Below, piece after piece: positions 9,564 to 40,489 of a stretch of 64,000 bases of DNA. The stretch lies in assembly GCA_964444815.1 (NCBI GenBank), contig CAYUIR010000001.1:78031-142030 (forward strand). The letters are read 5' to 3'. Position 1 is the stretch's first letter; each line of letters opens with the position of its first letter. A program made the translations under genes and the position numbers. This DNA comes from an uncultured Bdellovibrionales bacterium (lineage in GTDB: Bacteria; Patescibacteriota; Minisyncoccia; Moranbacterales; UBA1568). The notes under the pieces are model-generated. The model did no database searches and was not told the origin of the DNA. It saw nothing but the letters and a program-made list of their open reading frames with translations.

Positions 9564-9620
9564 ATGCTGTCAGTGTAGCAAATTATTGCTCTTTTGGCTT
9601 TTTTGCGCTACTCTTCCGTC

Positions 9621-10169
9621 ATGAACAAGACTCGAAGACTCTTTGTCGGCCTTCCGCTCTCGCGGGAGCTCAAGAAACGCCTCGTGCGTGAAATGGACGC
9701 TTTCCCAAAGGAAGCGTCGCTTTTGACACGCGAAGAGAATCTTCAAGTGACTGTCTTTTTCCTCGGGTTTGTCCATGAGGGAGAGGTGGCCGATGTCTGT
9801 GCCCGGGTTGGGGCCGTCTGTACGGATCTCGAAGCGTTCGAGCTTGCCTTTACCGGGATAGAGCTCATCGACAGTGATGAGAATCCCAAAAAGATAGAGC
9901 TCAAGGGAGAGGCCAGTGAAGGGCTCAAGTTACTGCGAGAAGAAATCGAAAAGGAGTTTGCTTCGTTTGTGACCGAGAAGAAACTCTACCGTCCGCATAT
10001 CACACTTGCCAAAATCAAGAAACAGCGTTGGCTCGCTTTGCCGGAGAAGCCCGTGCTCAAGGACAAACTGCACCTCATGGAACCAATTGACACGGTGTGT
10101 GTCTACGAAAGTCTCACTATCGACGGCAAACGTCGCTACGAACCGATTGACACCTTCTCGCTCAATTGA
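9621..10169 (+). CDS. thpR: 2H phosphoesterase (RNA 2',3'-cyclic phosphodiesterase ThpR/LigT family)
   Basis: RLFVGLPL N-terminus. Second HxTx motif is present (RPHITLAK). The first is QVTV instead of HxTx. Start set at ATG 9621. Confidence 0.7.
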   Translation: MNKTRRLFVGLPLSRELKKRLVREMDAFPKEASLLTREENLQVTVFFLGFVHEGEVADVCARVGAVCTDLEAFELAFTGIELIDSDENPKKIELKGEASEGLKLLREEIEKEFASFVTEKKLYRPHITLAKIKKQRWLALPEKPVLKDKLHLMEPIDTVCVYESLTIDGKRRYEPIDTFSLN

Positions 10170-13779: not shown

Positions 13780-14541
13780 ATGAAGAATAAATCATTCCCA
13801 ATCAGAACACGTTTTGCAAAGGACATCGTAGCGGAAGTACAGTTGCCAGAGCGCCAAATTGGGAAGATAGCTATTATTGCGAGCGGACTCCCCTCTGCCC
13901 CTGTTAAAAAGGAGTTTCTGCACTTTCTAGCTGCGCATGGTTATGTCGTTATCTTTCCTCGCTACCGCGGTACTTGGGAGAGCGATGGTGCATTTTTACG
14001 TGAATCGCCAGCGAAGGACATCGCTGATATTCTTTCTCAACTTGCGAAGAAGAAAAGCATTGTAGATCTCTTCACCAAAGAGAATATTTCTATAAAAGTT
14101 TCGACAGTTCATTTGTTCGGCTCATCATTTGGAGGACCGGCCGTACTACTAAATAGCAAGCATCCACTGGTCAAAAAAGTTATTGCTATTGCTCCTGTTA
14201 CAAATTGGCGTGTCGAAGGGGAGTCTGAGTCTTTTGTAGAGCATGTTCGTTCTACTCAGGCGACATTTGGTATGGCCTTTCGTCCGAATCATGATGGTGA
14301 TTGGTTGAAATTAATCCGGACTAATTTTTATAATCCCATTGATCATCTCGATCAAATCGATGGCAGTAAAGTCTTCATCATTCATGCTCAAGACGACACG
14401 CTTGTTCCAATCAGACCCTCGGTTGATTTCGCACAAAAAACACAATCAGCCATTTATATCAAACCGAGTGGCGGACATGGACTTCGTATGACCCACGGAT
14501 TTCTTTGGAAGAAAGTTGAGGCCTTTCTCAAGAAGCGATAG
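13780..14541 (+). CDS. alpha/beta hydrolase (S9/dienelactone-hydrolase-like)
   Basis: Nucleophile elbow GSSFGG, acid HAQDDTLVP, His in SGGHGL. Confidence 0.7.
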   Translation: MKNKSFPIRTRFAKDIVAEVQLPERQIGKIAIIASGLPSAPVKKEFLHFLAAHGYVVIFPRYRGTWESDGAFLRESPAKDIADILSQLAKKKSIVDLFTKENISIKVSTVHLFGSSFGGPAVLLNSKHPLVKKVIAIAPVTNWRVEGESESFVEHVRSTQATFGMAFRPNHDGDWLKLIRTNFYNPIDHLDQIDGSKVFIIHAQDDTLVPIRPSVDFAQKTQSAIYIKPSGGHGLRMTHGFLWKKVEAFLKKR

Positions 14542-14560
14542 CAATAAAAATTTGACATGA

Positions 14561-14602
14561 GACTCCCCTGGCGATTTTTTGAAAAAAGAGGGGAGTCTTT
14601 TT
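14561..14602 (+). terminator. rho-independent terminator after the hydrolase gene
   Basis: GACTCCCCT (14561-69) pairs with AGGGGAGTC (14589-97), followed by TTTTTA. Confidence 0.75.
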
Positions 14603-14856
14603 ATGCTCCGTACTATTGATAATACATCAAAATATTCGGATCGTTTTGATGGTATCTTTATCTCATGTCTGAGTATTCATGATTCAAGCAAAGGAGGAGG
14701 GATAGATGTATACCCCCGTAGATTCAAATGCCTCACAATCGATTATACGCATTCGTATATTCATAAAAATACAAAGCGCCAGTGGAGTACGATGATTGTA
14801 CGTGGTAGCGGATTATCTCTCTCTGGCTCTTCCTTACGTAATGTCCTATAAGTTAC

Positions 14857-14900
14857 ATTGTGAGACGTATAGACAATACTTCTCTCAAATAAGCCACGGA
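14857..14900 (+). repeat. direct repeat R1 (left copy) flanking AT-rich island I
   Basis: ATTGTGAGACGTATAGACAATACTTCTCTCAAATAAGCCACGGA. 42/44 identical to 16922-16965, with weaker similarity for about 150 nt further. Confidence 0.85.
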
Positions 14901-15095
14901 TCAAAGCTCGGTCTGGATATACCCTGTACCCATGACATACGCCACGCGTCTTTCCCCTACTACGATGGTCGGAAAAAACGAGAGTGGTATTTTGAATAAT
15001 AAAACAGAATGTAGCAAAAAATCTTCGAAAAAATCACTTCAATTTCGTAACCACCCCCCCCTACTTTTTCTTGCTTTGCGGGGGATTTACTAGAA

Positions 15096-15125
15096 AATAA
15101 AAAAGCCATCACTACAGATAGATGG
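15096..15125 (-). terminator. terminator of the ImmA-like/TM operon
   Basis: CCATC (15106-10) pairs with GATGG (15121-25). On the minus strand it is followed by a T-run. Confidence 0.6.
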
Positions 15126-15141
15126 TTTCTATAGGTCGACT

Positions 15142-15525
15142 CTATTTATTAGAATACGGATGGTTATTATATTTAATATCTGTAAAAATCCATCTCACCA
15201 TTATTTTTACGATTAAGACCGTTTCTCCCAGAGTGCCTAATGTTAATACTGAAAGAAAAGGCTGTAAATCAAAGACGTATGGTGAGTCTTTATACGTATA
15301 AAATATTACCCATATAAATACATACGTGATAATATTCTGCACCAACAGAAAAATAGGAAAAGCATATGCAAAAAACTTTCTGATGGTAAGTTTAAAAGCG
15401 GCATCTTTTTGCCATGTCTCCATTATAGAGGCAATGGCCTGATCTTTTTTGCTAGAAAAAACTTCCGCTTGTTCGGAGTAACTGAAATCACCGTTGTCTT
15501 CTGTTATTTGTGGTTCAGCAGGCAT
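15142..15525 (-). CDS. small membrane protein (2-3 TM), translationally coupled to the ImmA-like protease
   Basis: 127 aa. Acidic N-terminus then hydrophobic helices (FAYAFPIFLLVQNIITYVFIWVIFY; FLSVLTLGTLGETVLIV). Start overlaps the upstream stop by 11 nt. Confidence 0.6.
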   Translation of the reverse strand: MPAEPQITEDNGDFSYSEQAEVFSSKKDQAIASIMETWQKDAAFKLTIRKFFAYAFPIFLLVQNIITYVFIWVIFYTYKDSPYVFDLQPFLSVLTLGTLGETVLIVKIMVRWIFTDIKYNNHPYSNK

Positions 15526-16027
15526 AATCAGTTAATCCAAGATTTTTCAATCTATAAGCCATTGCAGTTTGGGAAACACCAAAGACACTTGCAATTAATG
15601 TTACATCCTTGGTTTTTGACCACCATATTTCTATTAAAGGTTTCGGCATCAGTAGACTTGCAGCAAAAGTATTTGCTTCTGCTTCTTCAGTCTTATCCTG
15701 CATTTCTAGATTCACAGTGTCTAGTCTCCAAAAAGTGTCTTTTTGTTTATCTTTGTGTAAGATGTAGTGCCCTAATTCATGAGCAATAGTAAATGACACT
15801 CTAGGAAAATACTCACCATCTGCAACATATATAGTTTTTGATACTCGATCTAGCTGTCCTAAAGCATCGGGTTCAGAAAAGTTAACCTTTTTTAAGGACA
15901 GGCCATATTTTTTAGCAACTTTCCCCAGATCTACTGGCGGAACAATTTGTTCTTCGCCATAAACTTCCGCAAGAACATCGGCTGCTTGAGCTTCTAAAGT
16001 ATTGAGTTTTTCTTGGCTGAGTTTCAT
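15515..16027 (-). CDS. ImmA/IrrE-family (COG2856-like) zinc metallopeptidase
   Basis: HEXXH as AHELGHYILH, downstream EEAEANTFAASLLMP, and a C-terminal VFGVSQTAMAYRLKNLGL tail typical of the family. Confidence 0.75.
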   Translation of the reverse strand: MKLSQEKLNTLEAQAADVLAEVYGEEQIVPPVDLGKVAKKYGLSLKKVNFSEPDALGQLDRVSKTIYVADGEYFPRVSFTIAHELGHYILHKDKQKDTFWRLDTVNLEMQDKTEEAEANTFAASLLMPKPLIEIWWSKTKDVTLIASVFGVSQTAMAYRLKNLGLTDYAC

Positions 16028-16111
16028 ATATAACTAGTTTACTACGCTTTCAGTATACCACAGGGATTGTTCCCTTTCCGCCTATTGAGTAGGTGTTATT
16101 TTTTCTATCTA

Positions 16112-16786
16112 CTAAGGAGTTGAAGATGGCGTCGTAGTAGGAATTTTATTTGGAAACTCGTAGATGATTTTTAGTAACATTTCAACAAAAGAGAGAAGAT
16201 TTTTTGCTTCTTCTTCAGTCATGATTGTAATCTCGTGATTAGCTTCATTTCCCTTTTGACGAATGTGGTCTACCCACCCTTTCGATGCCGGTGGAATATA
16301 GTTCTCATCAGATAGATATTCAACGTATTGAAGAAAGTTCAAATTTTGTGCGGCACCTTTATCTACAGCAACATGCATGAGTAGTTTTCGGCAAGATAGT
16401 ACCGTTGCAGTAAATGCATTTTTCGAATAAGCATCCCTTGCTTCTGTATAGAGATTTTTTACACCGTTGTCCGTAATTCCATTTACATCCCCACCTGGCC
16501 TAATACCAGGAGTTTGTTTTCTAGCTGCATCAAAAAATGTTGGCCTATAACAGTGATGGCAAATGTAAATTTCACCTTTTCTATCTCCACGACCATCTTC
16601 AAGTTCCCCTCGAAAAAAACCAACATTTGAAGCTAAGGAATTATTACAATAGCCACATGTATAGCTTTTTGAATTGAGAATACTCGTATTACTCCAAAAA
16701 TAGCTCATTCCATTAAAACGCTCAATATATTTATATCTTATTATACCACCAAAAATATAGTTGTAATATTTGATAAAATATGACAT
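16112..16786 (-). CDS. zinc-ribbon + DUF4145-like domain protein
   Basis: CGYC...CHHC ribbon, then a helical C-terminal domain (LSCRKLLMHVAVDKGA...WVDHIRQKGNEANHE...EEAKNLLSFVEMLLKIIYE) recalled as DUF4145. The start could be the second MSYF (16708). Confidence 0.55.
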   Translation of the reverse strand: MSYFIKYYNYIFGGIIRYKYIERFNGMSYFWSNTSILNSKSYTCGYCNNSLASNVGFFRGELEDGRGDRKGEIYICHHCYRPTFFDAARKQTPGIRPGGDVNGITDNGVKNLYTEARDAYSKNAFTATVLSCRKLLMHVAVDKGAAQNLNFLQYVEYLSDENYIPPASKGWVDHIRQKGNEANHEITIMTEEEAKNLLSFVEMLLKIIYEFPNKIPTTTPSSTP

Positions 16787-16827
16787 ATTCTTAAAATTAT
16801 ATTTATGTTCCTTTATTTAAGCCTTTT

Positions 16828-16851
16828 GTCCTTTAAATGAAATTAAAGGAC
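16828..16851. promoter_or_regulatory. 9-bp perfect inverted repeat upstream of the DUF4145 gene
   Basis: GTCCTTTAA-ATGAAA-TTAAAGGAC, 42 nt upstream of ATG 16786. Confidence 0.5.
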
Positions 16852-16921
16852 ATTTTTGTTTTAGGAGAAAACCGACTCAATTTATTTCTATTTTTACTGC
16901 CCTGCTGGTCGTTTAACTAGA

Positions 16922-16965
16922 ATTGTGAGACGTATAAACAATACTTCTCTCAAACAAGCCACGGA
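16922..16965 (+). repeat. direct repeat R2 (right copy) flanking AT-rich island I
   Basis: ATTGTGAGACGTATAAACAATACTTCTCTCAAACAAGCCACGGA. 42/44 identical to R1. Confidence 0.85.
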
Positions 16966-17127
16966 CTAAAAAGATACAGTACCGCATGTGTATTGCGCTC
17001 GATTTCCTGTTTATCCCCCTGCCCAGATGGCGTCAGATTTCAATGAGTACTTTTAAATATTGAATGAGGAAAGTTTCGGAAATTTTATGGTAAAAAATAT
17101 CGCGAGTTTTATATGCTACCCCCTACT

Positions 17128-17159
17128 GAAAATGAAAATTCCGGTGGTGGAGTCCGGAA
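17128..17159 (-). terminator. hairpin + T-run downstream of the 39-aa ORF
   Basis: TTCCGG (17139-44) pairs with CCGGAA (17154-59). The minus strand continues TTTTCATTTTC. Confidence 0.55.
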
Positions 17160-17207
17160 ATTAAAAAAAGCCCCGTGAATACGGAGCTTGGCGTTCAATT
17201 TGATTCT

Positions 17208-17327
17208 TTAGCGGAAGGCTCGGAGGACCAAGATGACGAGGATGACGACTACAGCGAGGCCGACACAACCACAGCCACGTCGACGACGGAGGCCACCTCC
17301 TATACTATTACGAAATCTTCCAAACAT
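17208..17327 (-). CDS. possible 39-aa basic/hydrophobic peptide (MFGRFRNSIGGGLRRRRGCGCVGLAVVVILVILVLRAFR)
   Basis: ATG 17327, stop 17208. Sits between two minus-strand terminators. No clear Shine-Dalgarno. An acidic ORF (17175-17384) lies antisense to it. Confidence 0.3.
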   Translation of the reverse strand: MFGRFRNSIGGGLRRRRGCGCVGLAVVVILVILVLRAFR

Positions 17328-17390
17328 ATGAGCATGCAAATGACTTATTTTGTATACAATAAGTATATCACAACTCCAATCTGAGTAAGA

Positions 17391-17418
17391 AAAAACCGGT
17401 CGGTACGCGATGCGTACC
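17391..17418 (-). terminator. terminator of the GGDEF gene
   Basis: GGTACGC-GAT-GCGTACC (17402-17418). The minus strand continues GACCGGTTTTTTTC. Confidence 0.75.
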
Positions 17419-17433
17419 TTCCGGTGGTCGGTT

Positions 17434-18345
17434 CTACTCGATAGCGTCAAGGTTGATATCGAGCGCTGTGTGGAGCACCGACTGGGTCGAGATGCAGACG
17501 GTATTTCCGCCTTTCTTTTTGGCGCGGTACATGGCCTCATCGGCTAGGCTCATCAGCCTGCTCAGAGTCACTGCGATATCGGACCCCGGCTCAATACTGC
17601 CGTCCATGATGCCGATGGAAGCAGTTACCTGTGGCTTACCTTCGATGAGCTGGAAGCGCCCATCCTGAGACATCTGCATGAGGAGCCGCTGTGCGCGTTC
17701 GCTGGCAAATGATGCATTCGCATTGAATGCCGCTAGCACGAACTCATCTCCACCTCGTCGACCAATGAGGTCTGTTCCCCGAGGGAAGCATTCACGAACG
17801 AGCTGGGCAAAGGCACACAGCACGCGATCGCCACCATCGTGTCCCTCGCTATCGTTGTAGATCTTGAAACCATCGAGGTCCACGTAAAGGACTGAGACAT
17901 CCGCGGTCGACTGAGGGTATGACGCTCGGAGCTGGTTCTGAGCCTCGGCGAAAAAGAACTCTTCGAATCCAGAGCGACTCAGAAGGCCCGTCAAAGGGTC
18001 TCTCGTTGAGCGTTCTTCGGCCAACCTGAGAGCGTTTGCAAGAGACGCTACCTGAGGCCGGAGACGTTTGATTTCCTGCTGTGCCTGATCGAGCTCGCTG
18101 ATCAGTCCCTCGAAGGTGTGTGCGCCGGTCTCCGTGGCCGCAGCCTCGTTGTGCCTCATCGTTTCAATACCCGCAAGGAGCGCCTTGTTCGCTTCCTCTA
18201 GCTTGCTGAGCTTATCTTCCAGAGCTTTCTCCGTCATCGCGTGTCGCTCCTCCGCTCTTGTGGCGGCGACACGGGCAATCCAGAGAAGGACAGTCAGAAG
18301 CAGAACGAGCACGCCGAGAAGCATGCTGGCGACAAAATAATCCAT
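17434..18345 (-). CDS. membrane-anchored diguanylate cyclase (TM + coiled coil + GGDEF)
   Basis: N-terminal TM helix, coiled coil, then LLSRSGFEE...VLYVDLDGFKIYNDSEGHDGGDRVL...RGTDLIGRRGGDEFVL. The RxxD I-site lies 5 residues before GGDEF. Confidence 0.85.
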   Translation of the reverse strand: MDYFVASMLLGVLVLLLTVLLWIARVAATRAEERHAMTEKALEDKLSKLEEANKALLAGIETMRHNEAAATETGAHTFEGLISELDQAQQEIKRLRPQVASLANALRLAEERSTRDPLTGLLSRSGFEEFFFAEAQNQLRASYPQSTADVSVLYVDLDGFKIYNDSEGHDGGDRVLCAFAQLVRECFPRGTDLIGRRGGDEFVLAAFNANASFASERAQRLLMQMSQDGRFQLIEGKPQVTASIGIMDGSIEPGSDIAVTLSRLMSLADEAMYRAKKKGGNTVCISTQSVLHTALDINLDAIE

Positions 18346-30399: not shown

Positions 30400-30702
30400 A
30401 TGGACACGAAAGTTCATAAGCAGAGTCTCCGTCGCGCCGCCTTGGAAGAGGTTGAATACTGGCTGATGGCTGATTTTGAGAAACACCCCAATCTCCCCAT
30501 CATCTTGGTAGCGCCTCCCGGGAGTCAGCACAAGCCGATCTTCGACCAGGTGTACCGGTCGATGCGAGAGTATTATTTCCACTTGTCTCTCACGACACTG
30601 GAGTGCCACCTCACCATTGAAGAGCTAAGCGACGCCCTGATCCGAGTAGCTCGCATCTATAGCAAGGTCGAGTTGACATCTACCACCACCCCACCCCGGT
30701 AA
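30400..30702 (+). CDS. hypothetical protein (100 aa)
   Basis: AGGAG Shine-Dalgarno 4 nt before ATG 30400. The terminator hairpin CCCGG/CCGGG + T-run overlaps the stop. Confidence 0.5.
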   Translation: MDTKVHKQSLRRAALEEVEYWLMADFEKHPNLPIILVAPPGSQHKPIFDQVYRSMREYYFHLSLTTLECHLTIEELSDALIRVARIYSKVELTSTTTPPR

Positions 30703-30736
30703 ACTTGACCGGGCTTTTTCTTGTCAATAATTTAAT

Positions 30737-30757
30737 TACGTAATTAGTTACGTAATT
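30737..30757. promoter_or_regulatory. TACGTAATT-AGT-TACGTAATT site A
   Basis: Part of the near-palindrome AATTACGTAATTAGTTACGTAATT, directly after a terminator. Confidence 0.6.
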
Positions 30758-30852
30758 CTTCTTTCACTTGACCATTGACGAAGGCGGCATTTCATGCCAA
30801 GGTATGAACATTCGACAAGAAAATTCTTGTTGCAAACCACACAGGAGGTGCG

Positions 30853-31206
30853 ATGAATTGGAGAATTGAGCGAGCCCACCAAGAGCTCCCGGCCGAGTTG
30901 GCCATCTTTGCCCGACGAGCGTTCGTCCGCAGCTGTGAAAAGGTATACGGAGTGGCAGTACCAATCGAGCACGTCGTTGCCTGTACCCTCCAAACGAGCA
31001 GCCTGACACGGTTCTTTGTACTAATCTGGCTAACCGAAGATTCGATGAGGATACTTGCAAAGGGGAACTTCTATCTCACGACATCAGGCGGACAATTGGT
31101 AATGCGCTTTCTCCAAACCGCCGATTGGAAACGTGTCGCCGTCGACCGGGCACGCCGGGATAACTACATCAATTCGGGTGGATTCCCCTCGATTACCGGG
31201 CCCTGA
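30853..31206 (+). CDS. hypothetical protein (117 aa)
   Basis: Strong Shine-Dalgarno ACAGGAGGTG 4 nt before the ATG. Terminator GCCG..CGGC + TTTTTC downstream. Confidence 0.55.
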   Translation: MNWRIERAHQELPAELAIFARRAFVRSCEKVYGVAVPIEHVVACTLQTSSLTRFFVLIWLTEDSMRILAKGNFYLTTSGGQLVMRFLQTADWKRVAVDRARRDNYINSGGFPSITGP

Positions 31207-31258
31207 GCCCACCAACCGCCGACCCTAAACTGAAGGCCGGCGTTTTTCTTTTCTTTGA

Positions 31259-31789
31259 TTATTTCGGCTCTGAAATTTCGGCTGAATTAAACAGCACGGA
31301 AAAGTCCCCACACCACGTAAGAGCATAGCGATACTGTGAGATATCTATCCCCTTCGGTACGGTGTAATTGATATTGCCCTCTGTCCCCTTGATTGGTCCG
31401 AGGTCGACATACTCTTTGGCTGCCAAGTCCTTGGCGAGGTAGACTCTCACATCGGGACCATTGATGGTCTTGTAGTTTTCATATCGAAGAATCGTTTCGT
31501 CTGCATTCCTCACGATACGGACTACACCCGAAGCAGGATGGGCGGGAGTATCGACAATCGGAAATGGTCCGGATATAACTGGTGCTGTCTCTCTGCTTGG
31601 ATCAGGCTCCCCGACTGCAATCGACTGAGGCAGTTCTTTTGATGGGCTCGTCTCTGGTGTCGCTACAGGCAAAACATCATTCACCACTTTGTTTAGGAAA
31701 AGCGGTGATAGTGCGTACCAAGCGACCGCCACGAGGACTGACATACCGAGCGCAATCAAAATGTGCTTTTTTTGTATACCAGCACTCAT
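31259..31789 (-). CDS. membrane-anchored DM13 domain protein
   Basis: TM helix, then GVVRIV...ILRYENYKTINGPDVRVYLAKD...YRYALTWCGDFSVLF, recalled as the DM13 pattern. Trimmed to ATG 31789. Confidence 0.65.
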   Translation of the reverse strand: MSAGIQKKHILIALGMSVLVAVAWYALSPLFLNKVVNDVLPVATPETSPSKELPQSIAVGEPDPSRETAPVISGPFPIVDTPAHPASGVVRIVRNADETILRYENYKTINGPDVRVYLAKDLAAKEYVDLGPIKGTEGNINYTVPKGIDISQYRYALTWCGDFSVLFNSAEISEPK

Positions 31790-31921
31790 ATATCTGAATC
31801 GAGAATAAATTAGCAGTACATTCCTCAATTGTGTTGACAATCCCCCTTTGTTACTGGCATTATACCACCAATCGACAGGGTCCCTGTCGATACCACAGCA
31901 CCTTACAGATTGGAGTTCGCC

Positions 31922-32491
31922 ATGATCATCGGCCTCTACAAGGATCATCACCATCTGCCATTCTGGCACAGCCCGCAACTGCCGTTCGAGCTCTTCAGCC
32001 CCGAAACCCACAGGGCAAGGGTCTTTACCTTCTATCACGGTTCCGACCGGGAAAAGAAACAGCCCGTGCCTGAAAGCTGGATCTGGCCTGTCCTCATTGG
32101 CCTCCACATGGTGGACATCCCTGTCATGGCTCACGTGTCTACCTTCTGTGACCACGAAGGTCCCGACATCTGGCATTACCCCAAACGTGTTTGGGTCCAG
32201 ATTTCGACACTACCCGATGTCGTCAATGAAGCTGGAATCCCGGTCACCGTCGTCGATGGAAAGACCGTGGTGCAGGGTCTCTGGGGTTGGGACAATGGCA
32301 CCTACACCCCCTACGAGCTCCTTCCCAAGGACCAGCAGAAGCCTTCTCCCGAAAACGCTCGGCCGGAGTTCTGGCGCGACTTCTTCGTGGCACAGCTCAA
32401 GAGCGTGAAGATTGCTGCCACCGCAGCTCGCACCAAGGCAGTCGCCGAAGCGGAAGCAGCGACAAATCTCCTGGCCGTCATTCCCGATTGA
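31922..32491 (+). CDS. hypothetical protein (189 aa)
   Basis: GGAG Shine-Dalgarno 6 nt before ATG 31922. His/Trp-rich N-terminal half and an Ala-rich tail. T-run terminator downstream. Confidence 0.5.
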   Translation: MIIGLYKDHHHLPFWHSPQLPFELFSPETHRARVFTFYHGSDREKKQPVPESWIWPVLIGLHMVDIPVMAHVSTFCDHEGPDIWHYPKRVWVQISTLPDVVNEAGIPVTVVDGKTVVQGLWGWDNGTYTPYELLPKDQQKPSPENARPEFWRDFFVAQLKSVKIAATAARTKAVAEAEAATNLLAVIPD

Positions 32492-32563
32492 CAAGCGGAC
32501 AGCCCGAGCACAAAGCAGAACTCAACGCCGACTCTCCACGTGAGGGCCGGCTTTTTTCTTTGT

Positions 32564-32584
32564 TACGTAATTAATTACGTAATT
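32564..32584. promoter_or_regulatory. TACGTAATT-AAT-TACGTAATT site B
   Basis: Lies within the perfect 20-nt palindrome TTACGTAATTAATTACGTAA (32563-32582), directly after a terminator. Confidence 0.6.
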
Positions 32585-33160
32585 CTATTGCATATAAATT
32601 TCTTCCGTTGATTGTAAAAGGTCCATTATCTCATCGTTGTGCATACCACGCGCCACAGCGTACTCCAGATACTTAAGAGAATTTTCATGCTGTTCGGCAT
32701 CATAGGCATCGACTCCATCGAGGGCCAAGATGACTTCATAGTCACGCATGTAGGCGTCGATAGCGGTCGTTCGGACGCACGTCATCGTATTGATACCAGT
32801 GAGAATGAGCGTATCAATGCCCTTTGCTACCAAGTAGGTTTCGAGGTCGGTATTGAAAAATGAACTAAAACGCTTTTTTACTATCTCTCTGTCGTCGGCA
32901 TCACGGTGCAGTTCGGGCAGCAACCTCACACCATCAGTACCCTCTATGGTCACCGGCTTGTTGTGCTTGCGATTGTAGAGTGGAGCATCAGAGAGATCGG
33001 CTTTGTATTCCTGACGTATCCAAATGACCGGGATGCCTCGAGTGTGAGCCCTATCCACAAGTGCATTCACCGAGTTTGTGAGCTTTTCCCGGCGTTCTGC
33101 TAACGGACCGCTAAGGAAAAATTCTTGCTGCAGATCAATAACGAGTAACGCTGGTTGCAT
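32585..33160 (-). CDS. isochorismatase-family cysteine hydrolase (nicotinamidase-like)
   Basis: ALLVIDLQQEF, IPVIWIRQEY, LTGINTMTCVRTTAIDA (catalytic Cys context). Start set at ATG 33160. Confidence 0.8.
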   Translation of the reverse strand: MQPALLVIDLQQEFFLSGPLAERREKLTNSVNALVDRAHTRGIPVIWIRQEYKADLSDAPLYNRKHNKPVTIEGTDGVRLLPELHRDADDREIVKKRFSSFFNTDLETYLVAKGIDTLILTGINTMTCVRTTAIDAYMRDYEVILALDGVDAYDAEQHENSLKYLEYAVARGMHNDEIMDLLQSTEEIYMQ

Positions 33161-33627: not shown

Positions 33628-34149
33628 TTAAATTTTCTCTTTTAGAATTTTGTTGATGAACTCTAGCTTTCTTCGATAATATTCTCGCGTTGATAGGCCG
33701 TTGCCAGACTCTTTCAATCTTCTGTATTCTTCCAGCTTGGCTGGGTCGCTTCGCAGGATAGTCTCAAATTTTACCAAGTTTTTCCAGTCGACACTCTCTT
33801 CATTGATCGGGAAAATGTCGATATGTTTGCCGTTTTCCTCTGTAACAAACCGGGCTCGTTTCAGAGGGTAGAAACTTCTGGGCTCACCAAAGCGTGACTT
33901 CAAAGCCTCGACTAACGCTTCAAATCTCGCTGGACTTACTGGGAGGTACACATCAATTTCGTCCTGACCAGATATACCGAGACTCGTCGCGCCATGATGC
34001 TCTATCCTGACATCCTGTCCCAAAGCCTCCTGTATCTTGGCTCTTACCCTTTGAAACTTCTCTTCCGCCGTAATATCAAATGGAACTATCGTGATAGTTT
34101 TGATATCCGATAGGCGTGCAATCCACTTTTCCTGTTCAGGTGTTAACAT
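33628..34149 (-). CDS. GrpB-like nucleotidyltransferase-fold protein
   Basis: IEHHGATSLGISGQDEIDVYLPV...HIDIFP pattern recalled from the GrpB family. The start overlaps the upstream stop (TAATG). Confidence 0.6.
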   Translation of the reverse strand: MLTPEQEKWIARLSDIKTITIVPFDITAEEKFQRVRAKIQEALGQDVRIEHHGATSLGISGQDEIDVYLPVSPARFEALVEALKSRFGEPRSFYPLKRARFVTEENGKHIDIFPINEESVDWKNLVKFETILRSDPAKLEEYRRLKESGNGLSTREYYRRKLEFINKILKEKI

Positions 34150-34439
34150 TATTTACTTTTTCTAAGCTTCACTTCTAGAATAAGTGCTGAACCAATAAAG
34201 AGTATGAAGTCAAAAAGAAGCTTAGCTACTGAAAAGCCATACTCTTTTTCAAAAGTGTAGGCACCTATGTAGACTTCATTCGGACCTTCCCAAATAAATG
34301 GGAGCGGAAAACCCACTATTACTTTTGGTGAGTCTGCAGTAAGCATAAGAGGAATTAGCTGCAAAGTTAGCCCGATGAGTATTGTGACAATCAATAGAAA
34401 GAGTTTACTTGGTCTCATAGAACTATGGCCTCTCACCAT
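34149..34439 (-). CDS. small membrane protein (96 aa, 3 TM)
   Basis: Hydrophobic helices. Coupled to the GrpB-like gene by a 1-nt overlap. AT-rich. Confidence 0.5.
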   Translation of the reverse strand: MVRGHSSMRPSKLFLLIVTILIGLTLQLIPLMLTADSPKVIVGFPLPFIWEGPNEVYIGAYTFEKEYGFSVAKLLFDFILFIGSALILEVKLRKSK

Positions 34440-34476
34440 TCTTGTTGGCGATAGAGAGGATGAAGTTTATATTAAG

Positions 34477-35025
34477 CTAAGCAATAGTTATAAGCTGAAC
34501 TCCGGCTGGAATTTTTGCTTCTACAATCTCATGAACAAGGCCTATGTTCTTCGCTTCTTCTGAGGAGATAATCCCCCCTTTTCTCATTAAGTCATCAATT
34601 ACTTTATAATCAATCCCGGTAAAGTCACTAACATTCTTTGCGATGTTCTCTCTGTCTCGTCTAAGAGTAGCCAATCTTTCACCTAACTGCTCTTCAGTTA
34701 AGCTGGACTGCCCGAAGTTTGCCATGACCCCGTGAAATAAAAAGGATGAGTTTTTCTGAGCGAGACGCTTAGTGCCAGCAGAAAATATCACGCTTGCAAT
34801 TGAATCAATTTGTCCAACATTATGGACATTAATTGGTATCGGCGAAGACTTGATAAGAGTCGCAATATTCATACCATCAAAAACGCTTCCACCGGGAGAC
34901 GAGATAAGAATATTAATTTCAGTAAATTGGCTATTGATAGCAGTTGTAATTGCACCAAGAAGCTGTCCAGCAGACTGAGAGTTTACGCCAGCCTGAAAAA
35001 TTATATATAGTTGCTTCATATCCAT
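34477..35025 (-). CDS. ClpP-fold serine protease-like protein (stand-alone)
   Basis: ISSPGGSVFDG, GQIDSIASVIF (compare ClpP GQAASMG), FLFHGV (compare MIHQP), EEAKNIGLVHEIV (compare EA..YGL.D). Confidence 0.65.
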   Translation of the reverse strand: MDMKQLYIIFQAGVNSQSAGQLLGAITTAINSQFTEINILISSPGGSVFDGMNIATLIKSSPIPINVHNVGQIDSIASVIFSAGTKRLAQKNSSFLFHGVMANFGQSSLTEEQLGERLATLRRDRENIAKNVSDFTGIDYKVIDDLMRKGGIISSEEAKNIGLVHEIVEAKIPAGVQLITIA

Positions 35026-35690
35026 TATTGCTTAGCTATCTTTCTAATTACATCTACTGCCGGAGAATTATAAATAAATTCTACCTGCGAACTTACCTCC
35101 GTAAGAATACTGTGTGCATTTCCAGTTGCCGTAAACTCGATGTGGATCTGTCCGGGTTGTGGCATGGGTTGACCGGGGACATTCATTGCTTGTAAACCAG
35201 GTTGAACAATAACTGGTGCGCTTGTTGTAGACTGAACTGGAGAAATCTTCTGATCTGCAATTCTTCTAATCAAATAGTCAAGAAACTCTACACTGGAATA
35301 GAATCGACTTATAGTATCTGCTCCGGTTTCCTCAAGTTCTGAGATGAACAAATGTATACTATTGTTCCAACTATTTGTTGGTAAAAGGGTGTGTGATAAT
35401 CGATAGGTATGGTTATTTAATCTGGCTTCTCTAATCTTTTGTTCCGCACTACGTATTTCTTGGAGGATGAGACTAGCAATATCGCGTTTCTGGTCCTGCT
35501 TTTGTTTCAAATACAAATAGTAAGCAACAAATGCTGTAAAAAGAGTTAGGACAGCCACGAAAAACTGAGAATTAAGTGCCAACCAAACTTTTGGAAAGTT
35601 TTCAATTACGGCACTTAATATAAAGATTGCCCCAGCTAATAGCGCCGATGAAGTAACTACATATGTTGCAATGTTAAATACTTTTTTCAT
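35025..35690 (-). CDS. 2-TM membrane protein with helical/Pro-Gln-rich ectodomain
   Basis: 221 aa, two N-terminal TM helices. The stop overlaps the ClpP-like ATG by 1 nt. Confidence 0.5.
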   Translation of the reverse strand: MKKVFNIATYVVTSSALLAGAIFILSAVIENFPKVWLALNSQFFVAVLTLFTAFVAYYLYLKQKQDQKRDIASLILQEIRSAEQKIREARLNNHTYRLSHTLLPTNSWNNSIHLFISELEETGADTISRFYSSVEFLDYLIRRIADQKISPVQSTTSAPVIVQPGLQAMNVPGQPMPQPGQIHIEFTATGNAHSILTEVSSQVEFIYNSPAVDVIRKIAKQ

Positions 35691-35716
35691 ACAGTTTAGT
35701 ATTTAGTTAATTATAT

Positions 35717-35775
35717 AAAAGCGGGGCGAAATGCCCCGCTTTTATGCTACTCTTATTTCTTTTCTTCTTCAACTT
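35717..35775 (-). repeat. copy r1 of the dnaK 3' end + terminator repeat
   Basis: AAAAGCGGGGC-GAAAT-GCCCCGCTTTTATGCTAC-TCTTATTTC..., also serving as terminator of the 217-aa gene. Confidence 0.8.
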
Positions 35776-36406
35776 TGCTTTCAGGCGCCCCGTCTGAAGC
35801 CGAGGTAGGCTCAGATTGTACTACTTCTGAAAGCTGTGGTCTTGATGGCACATATGGGGATAAGAGATTCTCACTCCCCTTATGTTCCGGCGACAATTGA
35901 GTGAGATTCTTAGGTTCACCGTTCATATTATTAAAGTTAATGGCAGAAAAGATAAGAATTGAAACAAGGGCGAAAATAAATGTCGATATAGTTATATAGT
36001 TTGTTCTTGTGATACTTTTACCGTACTTCCGTGGAGGAATAAACCCAACAATACTACTACTATTCATAAACATCCGGTCCATGGGAGAGATATCTGCATA
36101 CCACTTGTCTAACGATAGAATTTGATCTTCACTTTGCCAAGTGCTCAACAGATACCCAATTATCTGTGATACTATTGAAATGCTCAGTAGTATCCAAGAA
36201 ATAAAGAGAAGTGATGTGAAATCAAAATGGAGATTCGTATTAAATACGACATTAACAGAGAGAACAAAAACACCTGTAACTAGGTAGAGCAACATCTTAT
36301 CAAGAGCGTTTTGAGAAGAAAGATGATGTGTACGGGCCTGCTCTCTAGTTCTGTTGTAATAATCTTGAGCCTCTTCAAAACTTAAGTTTGGCATATGTTT
36401 ATCCAA
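35753..36406 (-). CDS. polytopic membrane protein (217 aa)
   Basis: 3-4 TM helices and a C-terminal acidic/Ser-rich tail ending EEEKK. AT-rich. Confidence 0.5.
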   Translation of the reverse strand: MDKHMPNLSFEEAQDYYNRTREQARTHHLSSQNALDKMLLYLVTGVFVLSVNVVFNTNLHFDFTSLLFISWILLSISIVSQIIGYLLSTWQSEDQILSLDKWYADISPMDRMFMNSSSIVGFIPPRKYGKSITRTNYITISTFIFALVSILIFSAINFNNMNGEPKNLTQLSPEHKGSENLLSPYVPSRPQLSEVVQSEPTSASDGAPESKVEEEKK

Positions 36407-36463
36407 AAGCGGGGCATTTCGCCCCGCTTTTATGCTACATCTTATTTTTTCTCTTCGCTAGGC
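36405..36463 (-). repeat. copy r2: dnaK terminator + last dnaK codons
   Basis: AAAAGCGGGGC-ATTTC-GCCCCGCTTTTATGCTAC-ATCTTATTTT. The loop is the reverse complement of the r1 loop. Confidence 0.8.
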
Positions 36464-38364
36464 TTTTCCTCTGCAGGCTCGGTCTCGGCGTCCTTCGGAG
36501 CATCAGCCGTACCCTCGGCCTTAGCTTCACCGGCAGCACCCTGCTTGGCGGCCTCAGCTTCGGAAGTGGCCTTATACAGCTTCTCGCCAATCTTCTGAGC
36601 TGCTTGGGAGAGGACTTCGGTCGCTTTCTTGATAGCGTCGAGGTCGTCACCGTTCTTCACCTTGTTGAGCTCTGTGATGGCATCCTCTACCGGCTTCTTC
36701 TCTTCGGCCGTGATCTTGTCACCGGCGTCTTTCATGGCTTTCTCTGTGGTGTATGAGAGCGTGTCGGCCATGTTGCGAGCTTCGATGAGGGCCTTCTTGT
36801 TCTTGTCTTCTTCGGCGTGGAGCTCGGCATCTTTCTTCATGCGCTCGATTTCGTCTTTCGACAAACCGGTCGATGATTCGATGCGGATGTTTTGGCTCTT
36901 GCCAGTCGCTTTGTCCTTGGCGGACACGGTGAGGATACCAGAGGCATCGATATCAAATGTCACCTCAATCTGTGGCACACCCCGGGGAGCCGGCATGATG
37001 CCATCGAGGATAAACTGACCGAGCGACTTGTTGTCCCCTGCCATCTCGCGCTCACCCTGGAGCACATGGATCTGGACCGACGGCTGATTGTCAGAGGCGG
37101 TCGAGAATACCTGGGAGCGACTGACTGGCACCGTGGTGTTGCGGTCGATGAGCGGGGTACGGACTCCGCCCATGGTCTCGATACCAAATGTGAGCGGAGT
37201 AACATCGAGGAGGAGGACATCTTTGACTGAGCCTTCGAGCACACCACCCTGGATAGCGGCACCGAGAGCGACCACTTCATCCGGGTTCACCGTGATGTTG
37301 GGCTTCTTGCCAAAGAATTTCTCTACTTCGGCGAGGACGAGAGGCATGCGGGTCATACCACCGACCAGGACCACTTCGGAGAGGTCCTTTACATCAATCT
37401 TGGCATCGGCGAGGGCCTTCTTCACTGGTTCAAACGAAGCCTTGACTAAATCCCCGACCAATTCTTCGAGCTTGGCCCGAGAGAGTTTGATGAGAAGGTG
37501 CTTGGGACCAGAGGCATCGGCGGTGATAAACGGCTGGTTGATTTCGGATTCCTGCGCGGTCGAGAGTTCAATCTTGGCCTTTTCAGCGGCTTCCTTGATG
37601 CGCTGGAGGGCGAGTGGGTCCTTGGACAGGTCGAGTCCTTCTTGCTTCTTGAATTCATCGAGGATCCAGTGGATGATGCGCTGGTCAAAGTCGTCACCAC
37701 CGAGATGCGTATCACCATTGGTCGAGCGGACTTCTACGGTGTCTTCGGATACTTCGAGGATAGAGATATCGAACGTCCCACCACCGAGGTCATAGACGGC
37801 GATCTTCTCGTCTTTCTTCTTATTGAAGCCATAGGCGAGAGCAGCAGCCGTCGGCTCGTTGATGATACGACGGACATTGAAGCCAGCGATTTCTCCGGCT
37901 TCCTTAGTCGCCTTGCGCTGTGAGTCATCGAAGTAAGCCGGGACCGTGATGACGGCATCGGTGATTTTCTCCCCGAGCTTTTCCTCAGCATCGGCCTTGA
38001 GCTTGGCCAAGACCATGGCGCTTATCTCCTGTGGGCTATACTCCTTGCCACCCATGACGATCTTGACGCCTTCACCGGCCTGGACCACCTTGTACGGCAG
38101 GGTCTTCATATCACGCTGGGCATCTTCGTCACTAAAGTGTCGTCCGATGAGACGCTTGACCGAGAAGAGTGTATTCTCTGGGTTGGTCACACTCTGACGC
38201 TTGGCGAGGAGCCCCACCAGACGCTCACCAGTTTTTGACACGGCGATCATCGACGGAGTCGTGCGATTACCTTCTTTGTTCTCGATAATGGTCGGGGTCC
38301 CACCCTCCACGAATGCCATGGCAGAGTTGGTTGTCCCGAGATCGATTCCTAATATCTTGGCCAT
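36442..38364 (-). CDS. dnaK: molecular chaperone DnaK (Hsp70)
   Basis: [27 protein letters not shown], full-length 640 aa. Confidence 0.98.
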
Positions 38365-38384
38365 ATGATTATATTTACTACTTT

Positions 38385-38405
38385 AATTACGTACTCAATT
38401 ACTTA
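38385..38405. promoter_or_regulatory. TACGTAATT-like site C just upstream of dnaK
   Basis: Plus strand AATTACGTA-CTC-AATTACTTA, which in minus sense is TAAGTAATT-GAG-TACGTAATT. Lies 21-41 nt upstream of the dnaK ATG. Confidence 0.5.
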
Positions 38406-38465
38406 TTATTGGCGATAGCCCCGCTCATGAGCTCCCCCACACTGGTGAGGGAGCCGAGCGCGTGG

Positions 38466-38873
38466 CTACTTCACCGATACCGTGACCTTCTTGGGTTTCA
38501 CGGATTCCTCCTTGGGCATCGTGATGGTGAGAACGCCCTTGTCATAGTGTGCTTGGGCGTCACTTCCCTTCACGGCCATCGGGAGGACGACTGAGCGAGA
38601 GAAGCTCCCGGTGCGGACTTCCTTCCGGTAATAGTCCTCACGCTTCACTTCCTGCTTTTCCTCAGAGCTGCCGCTCACGGTCAGAACATCATTTTCGATA
38701 GTGATGTCGACCTTGGCGGGATCGATACCTGGGACGGAGAGTTCGGCCACGACGTTGTCCTTGTCCTGATAGACATCGAGCGCCGGGAAGAAATCTACTG
38801 CCCCGAGGAACTCATCTCCGAAGAATCGGCTGAGGTCGTTCGTTGGCATAAATGGGATAAGATGGCGTGTCAT
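38466..38873 (-). CDS. Hsp20/alpha-crystallin small heat-shock protein
   Basis: ALDVYQDKDNVVAELSVPGIDP...GVLTITMPK. Start set at ATG 38873, which has AAAGGAGGTGA 7 nt upstream. Confidence 0.88.
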   Translation of the reverse strand: MTRHLIPFMPTNDLSRFFGDEFLGAVDFFPALDVYQDKDNVVAELSVPGIDPAKVDITIENDVLTVSGSSEEKQEVKREDYYRKEVRTGSFSRSVVLPMAVKGSDAQAHYDKGVLTITMPKEESVKPKKVTVSVK

Positions 38874-38933
38874 ATGGTTCTCACCTCCTTTCATTGCATT
38901 GATGATTGTTAACGGTAGATTGTCGATTGAATA

Positions 38934-39563
38934 CTACGAAACGCTCACTCTGGCTGGCCTGACTACTTTCGTACCTACTTTGTATCCCTTCTGAAGTACC
39001 TTGGCGATTTTATGTCCTTTCTCTTCGCTTCCCTCTGCACCTTCGACAGGCTCTGGACCTCCAGTTCCTTCGGAACTTACGGCTTCATGAAGACTGGGGT
39101 CAAAGAGTTCGCCGGGTGTGGCATCTATCATAGTCACTCCATTTTCTGTCAGTACTGTTTCCAATTGTTTCTCAATGTACTGGATACCCGTCACCCAAGG
39201 ACTGTCCTTTTGTTCGGGTGGGACATGCGACGTCGCGGCGCGGAAGTTGTCGAGGACCGGGACGATATCGAGTACAAGCTTCTCTATGAGATATCCGCCG
39301 AGCTCCTTCTGCGATTCTGCCTGCCGTTTCTTGTAGTTTTCAAAGTCCGCTTGGGTCCGCTTTAGGTCGGTCAAATATTCTTCTGCTTTGACCTGCCACT
39401 CCGACTTTTCTTCATCAGTGTTTTCATTCGTCATCGGCTCTTCGCCTGCTTGCTCCTTGCTACTCTCTTCTTCCTCCTCATTCATTGTTGGTTTTTTCTT
39501 AAGCATATGTTTGCGCATTATTTTATTAGGATGAGCGAGTGAGAGCACTCTTGGCGATTTCAA
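38934..39563 (-). CDS. grpE: nucleotide exchange factor GrpE
   Basis: YLTDLKRTQADFENYKKR...VLDNF...H.A. Several in-frame ATGs, so the N-terminus is uncertain. Confidence 0.88.
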   Translation of the reverse strand: MKSPRVLSLAHPNKIMRKHMLKKKPTMNEEEEESSKEQAGEEPMTNENTDEEKSEWQVKAEEYLTDLKRTQADFENYKKRQAESQKELGGYLIEKLVLDIVPVLDNFRAATSHVPPEQKDSPWVTGIQYIEKQLETVLTENGVTMIDATPGELFDPSLHEAVSSEGTGGPEPVEGAEGSEEKGHKIAKVLQKGYKVGTKVVRPARVSVS

Positions 39564-40448: not shown

Positions 40449-40489
40449 ATTATAATAAGTGGTTAGCACTCTGTCAAGTCGAGTGCTAA
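40449..40489 (-). promoter_or_regulatory. hrcA operon promoter (TTGACA-17-TATAAT) overlapped by a perfect CIRCE
   Basis: CIRCE TTAGCACTC-N9-GAGTGCTAA at 40463-40489. The -35 TTGACA (40477-40472) lies in the CIRCE spacer. The -10 TATAAT is at 40454-40449. Confidence 0.9.

Follow-up and report, generated by a model that had tools for sequence, protein, structure and literature searches.

AbrB and its paralogue Abh, transition-state regulators of Bacillus subtilis, share an N-terminal swapped-hairpin (looped-hinge helix) DNA-binding fold. AbrB is a Firmicutes protein of 94 amino acids (aa) that possesses a C-terminal tetramerisation domain and recognises a loose consensus. It autoregulates, acts pleiotropically, and contacts DNA through its Arg15 loop. 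MetJ is a ribbon-helix-helix protein whose operators are composed of 2-5 tandem 8-base-pair (bp) palindromic metboxes that abut at an 8-bp period. One dimer binds each box, neighbouring dimers make cooperative contacts, and S-adenosylmethionine is the co-repressor. MraZ, a member of the SpoVT/AbrB superfamily, occupies 3-4 short, regularly spaced boxes that lie just before its own promoter or overlap it. It does so cooperatively, each major groove receiving one SpoVT/AbrB cradle, and acts as a repressor (PMC12957436). The MraZ boxes are direct repeats of GTG(G/T) with a 6-nucleotide (nt) spacer and a 10-bp period, upstream of mraZ, which heads the cluster of cell-division and cell-wall (dcw) genes (PMC12957436). 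Here, we describe a repeated DNA word found at three sites (A, B, and C) in a 64-kb stretch of contig CAYUIR010000001.1 (assembly GCA_964444815.1), referred to as the window. The sites are probably operators of a family of ~58-aa proteins with the AbrB/MazE/SpoVT fold that is widespread in the Patescibacteria, or candidate phyla radiation (CPR). The Patescibacteria form a large part of bacterial diversity and have tiny genomes with few recognisable regulators, and to our knowledge almost nothing has been established about their control of transcription. The closest named homologues of the DnaK encoded in the window are all from Candidatus Moranbacteria/Moraniibacteriota, and the window is therefore assigned to this group.

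Systems of this general type, in which a small repressor-type protein regulates its own gene through a repeated operator, are familiar. Like AbrB, the ~58-aa regulator appears, from where its arrays are placed, to autoregulate and to have broad, functionally mixed targets. It differs from AbrB in consisting of the domain alone (58 aa, with a basic tail at the N-terminus), in its occurrence in Patescibacteria, and in an operator that is a sharply defined palindromic octamer, TTACGTAA, in phased arrays. The array of short boxes at a fixed period just before the regulator's own gene resembles that of MraZ. MraZ has two fused domains (~150 aa), forms rings, and is linked to the dcw operon, whereas the units here are palindromic with a 12-bp period, and the regulator is a single-domain protein whose gene lies away from dcw. 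On these grounds, MraZ boxes were rejected as an explanation of the sites. The MazE, VapB, and PrlF antitoxins have in common with the proposed system the fold, the Pfam family PF04014, and autorepression through palindromic operators before their own genes. Unlike these type II antitoxins, the CPR protein lacks a tail for toxin binding at its C-terminus, and its arrays are also present at many unlinked genes. A toxin-antitoxin operator was likewise rejected: the protein is a single 58-aa domain, and the genes 3' of it are diverse (RadC, N6/N4 methyltransferases, MazG, GIY-YIG, Fic, and type I restriction-modification), none of them MazF or PIN. With MetJ, the likeness lies in an operator of tandem short palindromic 8-bp words; the protein sequence and the taxon are unrelated. 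A full-text literature search returned nothing linking TTACGTAA or the ~58-aa AbrB-type family to regulation in Patescibacteria.

A sequence-only reading of the window had described the repeat as a recurrent 21-mer. In site A, the 21-mer is TACGTAATT-AGT-TACGTAATT (30737-30757); in site B, it is TACGTAATT-AAT-TACGTAATT (32564-32584); and in site C, read in the minus sense, it is TAAGTAATT-GAG-TACGTAATT (38385-38405), 21 nt from the dnaK ATG (38364). These coordinates were all confirmed, and the perfect 20-nt palindrome that contains part of site B is TTACGTAATTAATTACGTAA (32563-32582). The repeat is better described as a 12-bp palindromic unit, AATTACGTAATT, arranged head to tail around the core octamer TTACGTAA. 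Site A (30734-30757, unstranded) is composed of two units, AATTACGTAATT then AGTTACGTAATT; the octamers at 30736 and 30748 are both exact. Site B (32561-32584, unstranded) is composed of TGTTACGTAATT then AATTACGTAATT. Site C (38375-38406, minus strand), 5' of dnaK, is degenerate. Its plus strand reads TTACTACT at 38375, TTACGTAC at 38387, and TTACTTAT at 38399, and on the dnaK strand the site is ATAAGTAA-TTGA-GTACGTAA-TTAA-AGTAGTAA. Because the half-site TTAC is retained at all three positions with an exact 12-bp period, site C is counted as three degenerate units. Two of its unit variants, ATAAGTAA and GTACGTAA, are also found in the regulator's own upstream operators.

The repeat is far from random in the window. 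The octamer occurs five times in the window, as the sequence-only reading had counted, but its estimate of roughly one by chance was too generous: 0.34 are expected, and none of 100 dinucleotide shuffles reaches five. With up to three mismatches allowed, the 21-mer pattern matches only sites A, B, and C (0.01 expected per window). Pairs of octamers at a 12-bp offset, with three mismatches or fewer in total, number three and are all intergenic, compared to 0.06 expected per window from a first-order Markov model. The fifth exact octamer (14834-14841, unstranded) has no partner at 12 bp, lies in a low-GC stretch among overlapping short open reading frames (ORFs), and is probably not a functional array. 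An Rfam search of the window found two tRNAs only and no match at the sites.

The array was then followed through other genomes with the exact pattern TTACGTAATT-NN-TTACGTAA, scanned across bacteria and archaea with each species represented by a single genome. At least 118 loci match, of which at least ~76 are from Patescibacteria; those among the matches listed include Saccharibacteria, Moran-, Parcu-, Doudna-, Davies-, and Paceibacteria, and others. The ~76 include metagenome-assembled genomes (MAGs) that are labelled 'Bdellovibrionales' or 'Gammaproteobacteria', one of which is syntenic with the window and several of which encode the CPR regulator. Many of the listed loci have 3-5 units, and the period is 12 bp without exception. 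Where a site has two units, degenerate units extend into the flanks on both sides. The arrays are intergenic: of 75 at the CPR loci, no more than 9 lie within called ORFs, in DNA that is 85% coding. Within tandem gene pairs, the distances to the start and stop codons do not discriminate between the two, since both are short in compact genomes.

The 'Bdellovibrionales' labels bear on one rival explanation, in which the sites are boxes of LexA or another known stress regulator. A short LexA box, TTAC-N3-GTAA, has been reported for Bdellovibrio (PMC8565304), and the sites share its half-sites TTAC and GTAA. Several matching MAGs carry the Bdellovibrionales label, but one of these is syntenic with this Moranbacteria window, and several encode the CPR regulator. 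Moreover, the half-sites here are separated by N0 rather than N3 and the units recur every 12 bp, no lexA was found in the window, and the neighbouring genes are not SOS genes. The probability left for a LexA-type box is close to negligible.

When the genes adjoining the arrays were clustered, two recurrent neighbours emerged, the ~58-aa gene in CPR and a MarR-GNAT gene elsewhere. Among CPR loci picked by the motif, the array lies ~10-60 nt before the ~58-aa gene at eight (L009, L017, L037, L055, L056, L080, L085, and L113), and in five MAGs one array is found at the regulator gene with further arrays elsewhere in the genome. Because this association had started from the motif, the reverse test started from the protein, and 80 metagenome loci (418 kb) were picked solely by a relative of the ~58-aa protein, using a single-protein query. 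An exact TTACGTAA is present within 90 nt upstream of the gene in 31 of the 80, usually in 2-3 copies with a 12-bp period. The same 418 kb contain 20 strict arrays, 15 of which sit 4-38 nt before the regulator ATG and five of which sit 4-88 nt before other genes. At the regulator gene, the arrays are positioned just 3' of a TAnAAT -10-like box and just 5' of the start codon. The 4-nt spacer varies by lineage (TTAA, TGTA, CAGG, GCGG, and others), and the 12-bp period is constant.

The DNA word also changes with the protein. The ~58-aa protein has a variable loop that aligns with the Arg15 loop of AbrB. Proteins with the loop xGGxS have TACGTAA repeats at 19 of 23 non-redundant loci and the variant TTCAGTAA at none. 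Proteins with the loop [KR]SGGG have TTCAG[TG]AA or TTACTGAA repeats, again with a 12-bp period, at 11 of 12 loci, and TACGTAA at 0 of 12. This shift of the word with the DNA-contact loop encoded by the adjacent gene is the strongest in-silico evidence available that the protein binds the word. The [KR]SGGG proteins form a paralogous class, with TTCAGTAA/TTACTGAA repeats before the gene at L125, L133, L140, L153, L176, L189, L191, L193, L195, L197, and L199. Other small regulator classes have further variant repeats, such as TAAGTATTTAAATACTTA and GAGTTAACTC. Together, the regulator classes and their variant words constitute a natural specificity series, and a case within the AbrB fold in which protein and DNA specificity shift in parallel.

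The family has the consensus MARRKxxDxNIRKLTKxGxKSIGLTLPIExVRELGWREKQKVVVK...IxDWKK and comprises at least 2,940 clusters at 90% identity, with named members nearly all from Patescibacteria. Database labels are absent or generic ('hypothetical', 'MazE antitoxin', 'AbrB/MazE/SpoVT family'). Of three members searched against Pfam PF04014, two score 26.3 and 30.6 bits (cut-off 24.7) and the third falls below. A profile of the family reaches the AbrB N-domain in the PDB with an E-value of ~0.04. The AlphaFold model of the regulator has a mean predicted local distance difference test score (pLDDT) of 85 and the order beta-beta-alpha-beta-beta. Its leading structural matches in the PDB are MazE, AbrB-N (33-36% identity, root-mean-square deviation ~1.8 A), SpoVT, and Abh, with match probabilities that are near-certain to certain, and the top Foldseek match is MazE 1ub4_C.

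With an array before the ~58-aa gene across Patescibacteria that co-varies with the DNA-contact loop, the suggestion that the sites are operators of a dimeric regulator is upheld and can be given a candidate. The protein that binds the arrays is most likely this tiny, previously uncharacterised AbrB-type DNA-binding protein of the ultrasmall Patescibacteria, as judged from sequence and predicted structure. As in other AbrB-type domains, it would be an obligate swapped-hairpin homodimer, with one dimer to each TTAC|GTAA palindrome. As the octamers are separated by an A/T-rich 4-bp spacer and recur strictly every 12 bp, 2-5 dimers could lie side by side, probably binding cooperatively. At its own gene, the -10-like box precedes the array and the start codon follows it, and autorepression is therefore proposed, in which occupied octamers would block RNA polymerase by occlusion. 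For the direction of regulation in general, repression is an even call. At site C, the regulator may repress an internal promoter for dnaK, downstream of the operon start that CIRCE/HrcA controls. Gene Y may be controlled from site A, where the array is just 5' of -35-like boxes, in either direction. Site B has no promoter to control; it may be an orphan, may be decaying, or may serve as a roadblock when bound. The value of the finding lies in its breadth across CPR and in the sharpness of the motif: a sharp word and a conserved 58-aa protein would offer a first handle on gene regulation in CPR and a way of predicting targets across thousands of genomes from uncultured organisms.

A MarR-GNAT gene is the other recurrent neighbour of the array, and it raises the possibility that a different regulator, either a winged-helix MarR-type (MarR-GNAT-like) protein or another dimeric factor, binds the arrays in the window. 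Among the matches listed, TTACGTAA-N4-TTACGTAA is found 3-24 nt before a ~315-aa MarR-GNAT gene at 13 non-CPR loci, and no AbrB-type gene was found in the 64-kb window. However, a MarR-GNAT homologue is also absent from the window and from all CPR loci examined, and across CPR, Moranbacteria among them, it is the AbrB-type gene that the array accompanies and co-varies with. A different binder at the sites is therefore considered very unlikely. The MarR-GNAT loci are mostly from Bacteroidota, with Ignavibacteriaceae and others (L002, L006, L030, L039, L041, L058, L059, L061, L063, L069, L086, L112, and L118). From its upstream arrays, MarR-GNAT looks like a second, unrelated autoregulated factor that uses the same operator word in a separate system.

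Several observations weigh against the sites being operators of the ~58-aa protein. The same 20-mer stands before the MarR-GNAT gene in Bacteroidota, so the DNA word alone does not name its binder. No member of the ~58-aa family was found in the 64-kb window by tblastn or a six-frame hidden Markov model (HMM) search, nor in the 20-kb syntenic stretches of four relatives, and the position in the window that is syntenic with the regulator gene of L085 holds abutting pgk and mraY genes instead. Site B lies between convergent genes without an obvious promoter role. Convergent-gap arrays make up ~17-20% (12/60) of CPR arrays compared to a background of ~10%, though some of these reflect gene-calling errors, and a pure promoter-operator model does not predict that such arrays are undepleted. 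The neighbours of the arrays are functionally heterogeneous, and include ribosomal proteins L1 and S2, Ile-tRNA synthetase, Ddl, MiaA, MnmA, an M16 peptidase, an RNase J-like protein, PdxT, and others.

Conservation among close relatives gives evidence on both sides. In L200, whose DnaK is 98% identical, both octamers of sites A and B are kept while the spacer and flanks vary, which favours the operator reading; the conservation of site A is weak evidence, because the entire intergenic region is 95% identical. Only the first of the two site B octamers remains in L205, where an array also precedes a different gene. The regions upstream of dnaK in L200, L202, L204, and L206 contain no TACGTAA and are AGTAA-rich only, without a clear site C, so comparison of the dnaK upstream regions finds this site in the window alone. 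The DM13 gene presents the reverse case. In L202, an array lies 8 nt before it, and in the window the same gene has no array upstream, only a plain TGGTATAAT promoter. The sites thus turn over among close relatives, with the dnaK site only in the window and the DM13 site only in L202.

A regulator gene outside the window, convergent arrays, mixed neighbours, and turnover could all be accommodated by a global regulator of the AbrB kind. They would also fit an alternative in which the arrays are Patescibacteria-wide 'genome punctuation': a minimal protein of the AbrB fold, present in abundance, would cover short arrays between genes, among them arrays where convergent genes end and arrays that follow terminators or tRNA genes. 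If true, punctuation would insulate transcription units by roadblock termination and could contribute to nucleoid organisation in very compact genomes. It would explain site B, the mixed neighbours, the clustering in variable or defence islands, and the fast turnover. This alternative is regarded as unlikely.

For the operator reading to hold, this genome is inferred to encode the ~58-aa regulator outside the 64-kb window. Moranbacteria do encode the protein, and an array precedes its gene in L080, L208, and L209. In these three loci, further arrays lie 16-69 nt before other genes, which encode an uncharacterised 188-aa protein, TspO, MsrA, an OGFr_N-domain protein, and an HD-domain protein (HD_4). 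The arrays are clustered, with five in 14 kb of L208, comparable to the three within 8 kb in the window. L208 also encodes two regulator paralogues 2.3 kb apart. As a separate observation, the Moranbacteria regulator gene heads same-strand strings of defence-type genes (L208, 1316-6983; L209, 5305-14961; L210, 10001-15357). In these strings, Fic/RhuM genes precede the regulator, which is followed by RadC, N6/N4 or EcoRI-type methyltransferases, a MutH-like nuclease, type I restriction, Mrr, and GmrSD. Within the window, gene Y was considered as a divergent regulator and rejected: it was the best HMM match but an insignificant one, the profile-profile comparison left it a very low probability of relationship, and its single-sequence AlphaFold model has a low-confidence pLDDT of 53 and no AbrB-like fold. 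Small minus-strand ORFs 3' of site B were also rejected because their translations resemble noise.

Gene Y (30853-31206, plus strand) encodes a 117-aa protein of no known family and, as the first gene 3' of site A, is its candidate target. Site A begins 14 nt past the T-run of a terminator belonging to an unknown 100-aa gene; this terminator-like hairpin, CCCGGTAAACTTGACCGGG with its T-run (30695-30723, plus strand), lies outside the repeat. The distance from site A to the ATG of gene Y is 98 nt, and the site stands 9 nt before conserved -35-like boxes, TTGACC/TTGACG. Site B lies in a convergent gap and starts 4 nt past the T-run of the gene Z terminator (hairpin and T-run at 32527-32557, plus strand), which is also outside the repeat. 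On its other side, the TAG stop codon of an isochorismatase-family gene (32585-32587) abuts the last base of site B. The sequence-only reading had remarked on a terminator immediately before sites A and B. This is correct in the window, but it is not a general trait of the arrays, as 13 of 75 have an adjacent terminator compared to 38 of 319 control intergenic positions.

The terminators are relevant to a rival explanation at the level of RNA, in which the arrays form hairpins that terminate transcription in both directions or stabilise 3' ends. A hairpin of 9-10 bp can form between any two octamers, sites A and B are at gene ends beside terminators, and several arrays elsewhere are flanked by A-runs and T-runs or lie 3' of tRNA genes. 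However, the array stems are AU-rich and weak, site B has no U-run, site C does not fold, and genuine GC-rich terminators already precede sites A and B. In addition to the lack of enrichment beside terminators, a strict 12-bp period, 3-5 units, a word common to several phyla, and co-variation with a DNA-binding protein would not be expected of terminators. An RNA-level role has only a slight chance of being correct.

Sites A and B also bracket a 1.8-kb block, and the sequence-only reading had offered a recombination or boundary site as its second possibility. In this explanation, the arrays would be copies of a dispersed repeat or a recombination element (repetitive extragenic palindrome (REP)/bacterial interspersed mosaic element, miniature inverted-repeat transposable element, or att site) that bounds a mobile block. 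The two copies are near-identical and enclose genes Y, DM13, and Z; gene Z is exchanged for a non-homologous gene in L200 while the terminator and array persist; and the sites turn over among relatives and vary in unit number. REP-type repeats are lineage-specific, unlike this word, which is the same across CPR phyla. No target-site duplication, integrase, transposase, or RAYT gene is present near the sites, the block order is syntenic in L200, and arrays elsewhere are mostly single, beside start codons, and next to unrelated genes. The recombination idea is thus not borne out and is judged extremely improbable, and the bracketing of a block by sites A and B looks incidental.

The A-B block itself is variable in content. 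Gene Z (189 aa, 31922-32491) is replaced in L200 (14467-14868) by a non-homologous 133-aa gene, and the terminator and array B just 3' of gene Z are conserved there despite the replacement. Genes X and Y are fast-evolving, with Y 73% identical where DnaK is 98% identical.

Site C stands at the end of the minus-strand gene string hrcA-grpE-hsp20-dnaK, of which dnaK (36442-38364, minus strand) is the last gene and the candidate target of the site. The core of site C lies 10-42 nt before the dnaK ATG, between a strong post-hsp20 hairpin and the start codon, and is preceded by a -10-like CAATAAT. The same gene string carries a known heat-shock operator, CIRCE (controlling inverted repeat of chaperone expression), as a perfect element, TTAGCACTC-N9-GAGTGCTAA, 5' of hrcA (40463-40489, unstranded). 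The two are alike in being inverted-repeat operators on one chaperone gene string. CIRCE differs in its sequence, in being single copy, and in being bound by HrcA. Because the perfect CIRCE lies separately, as the only match to its pattern in the window and without overlap with sites A-C, the motif is distinct from it, as the sequence-only reading had stated. The position of site C suggests that dnaK may be under a second layer of control besides HrcA/CIRCE.

The hairpin between hsp20 and dnaK, GGCTCCCTCACCAGTGTGGGGGAGC (38410-38450, minus strand), is strong: the 91-nt region folds at -32 kcal/mol (z = -3.8), and no U-run follows. A similar stem is present in the relative L202 at about 9900-9950. 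The hairpin may be a processing or stabilising element inside the operon. L200 has no hsp20 between grpE and dnaK (9417-10001, compared to 38364-38934 in the window), and both site C and the hairpin are gone there as well.

The region 3' of dnaK is variable among the relatives. A reverse-transcriptase gene (RVT_1, ~365 aa) is found in it in L202 (15423-16523), where it lies directly 3' of the DM13 gene, and in L205 (5638-6735). It may belong to a retroelement, such as a diversity-generating one. Within the window, low-GC stretches are found at 34001-36000 (39%) and 14001-18000 (38-43%), compared to ~52% in the rest. The stretch at 34001-36000, between dnaK and the isochorismatase gene, encodes a protease of the ClpP family and small membrane proteins, and may have been acquired.

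Beyond CPR, the array has further occurrences. Among viral contigs, there are 19 scattered motif matches only, and no candidate stretch encodes the regulator. In Bacteroidales/Rikenellaceae MAGs, arrays of 3-4 TTACGTAA units occur several per genome (L012, L042, L087, L101, L034, L048, L070, L096, and L110), with neither an AbrB-type nor a MarR-GNAT gene within the 8 kb fetched. A MAG of the Pacearchaeota, a DPANN archaeon, has an array 26 nt before a membrane-protein gene (L021, 7174-7193), which hints that the system, or at least the word, may reach other ultrasmall lineages.

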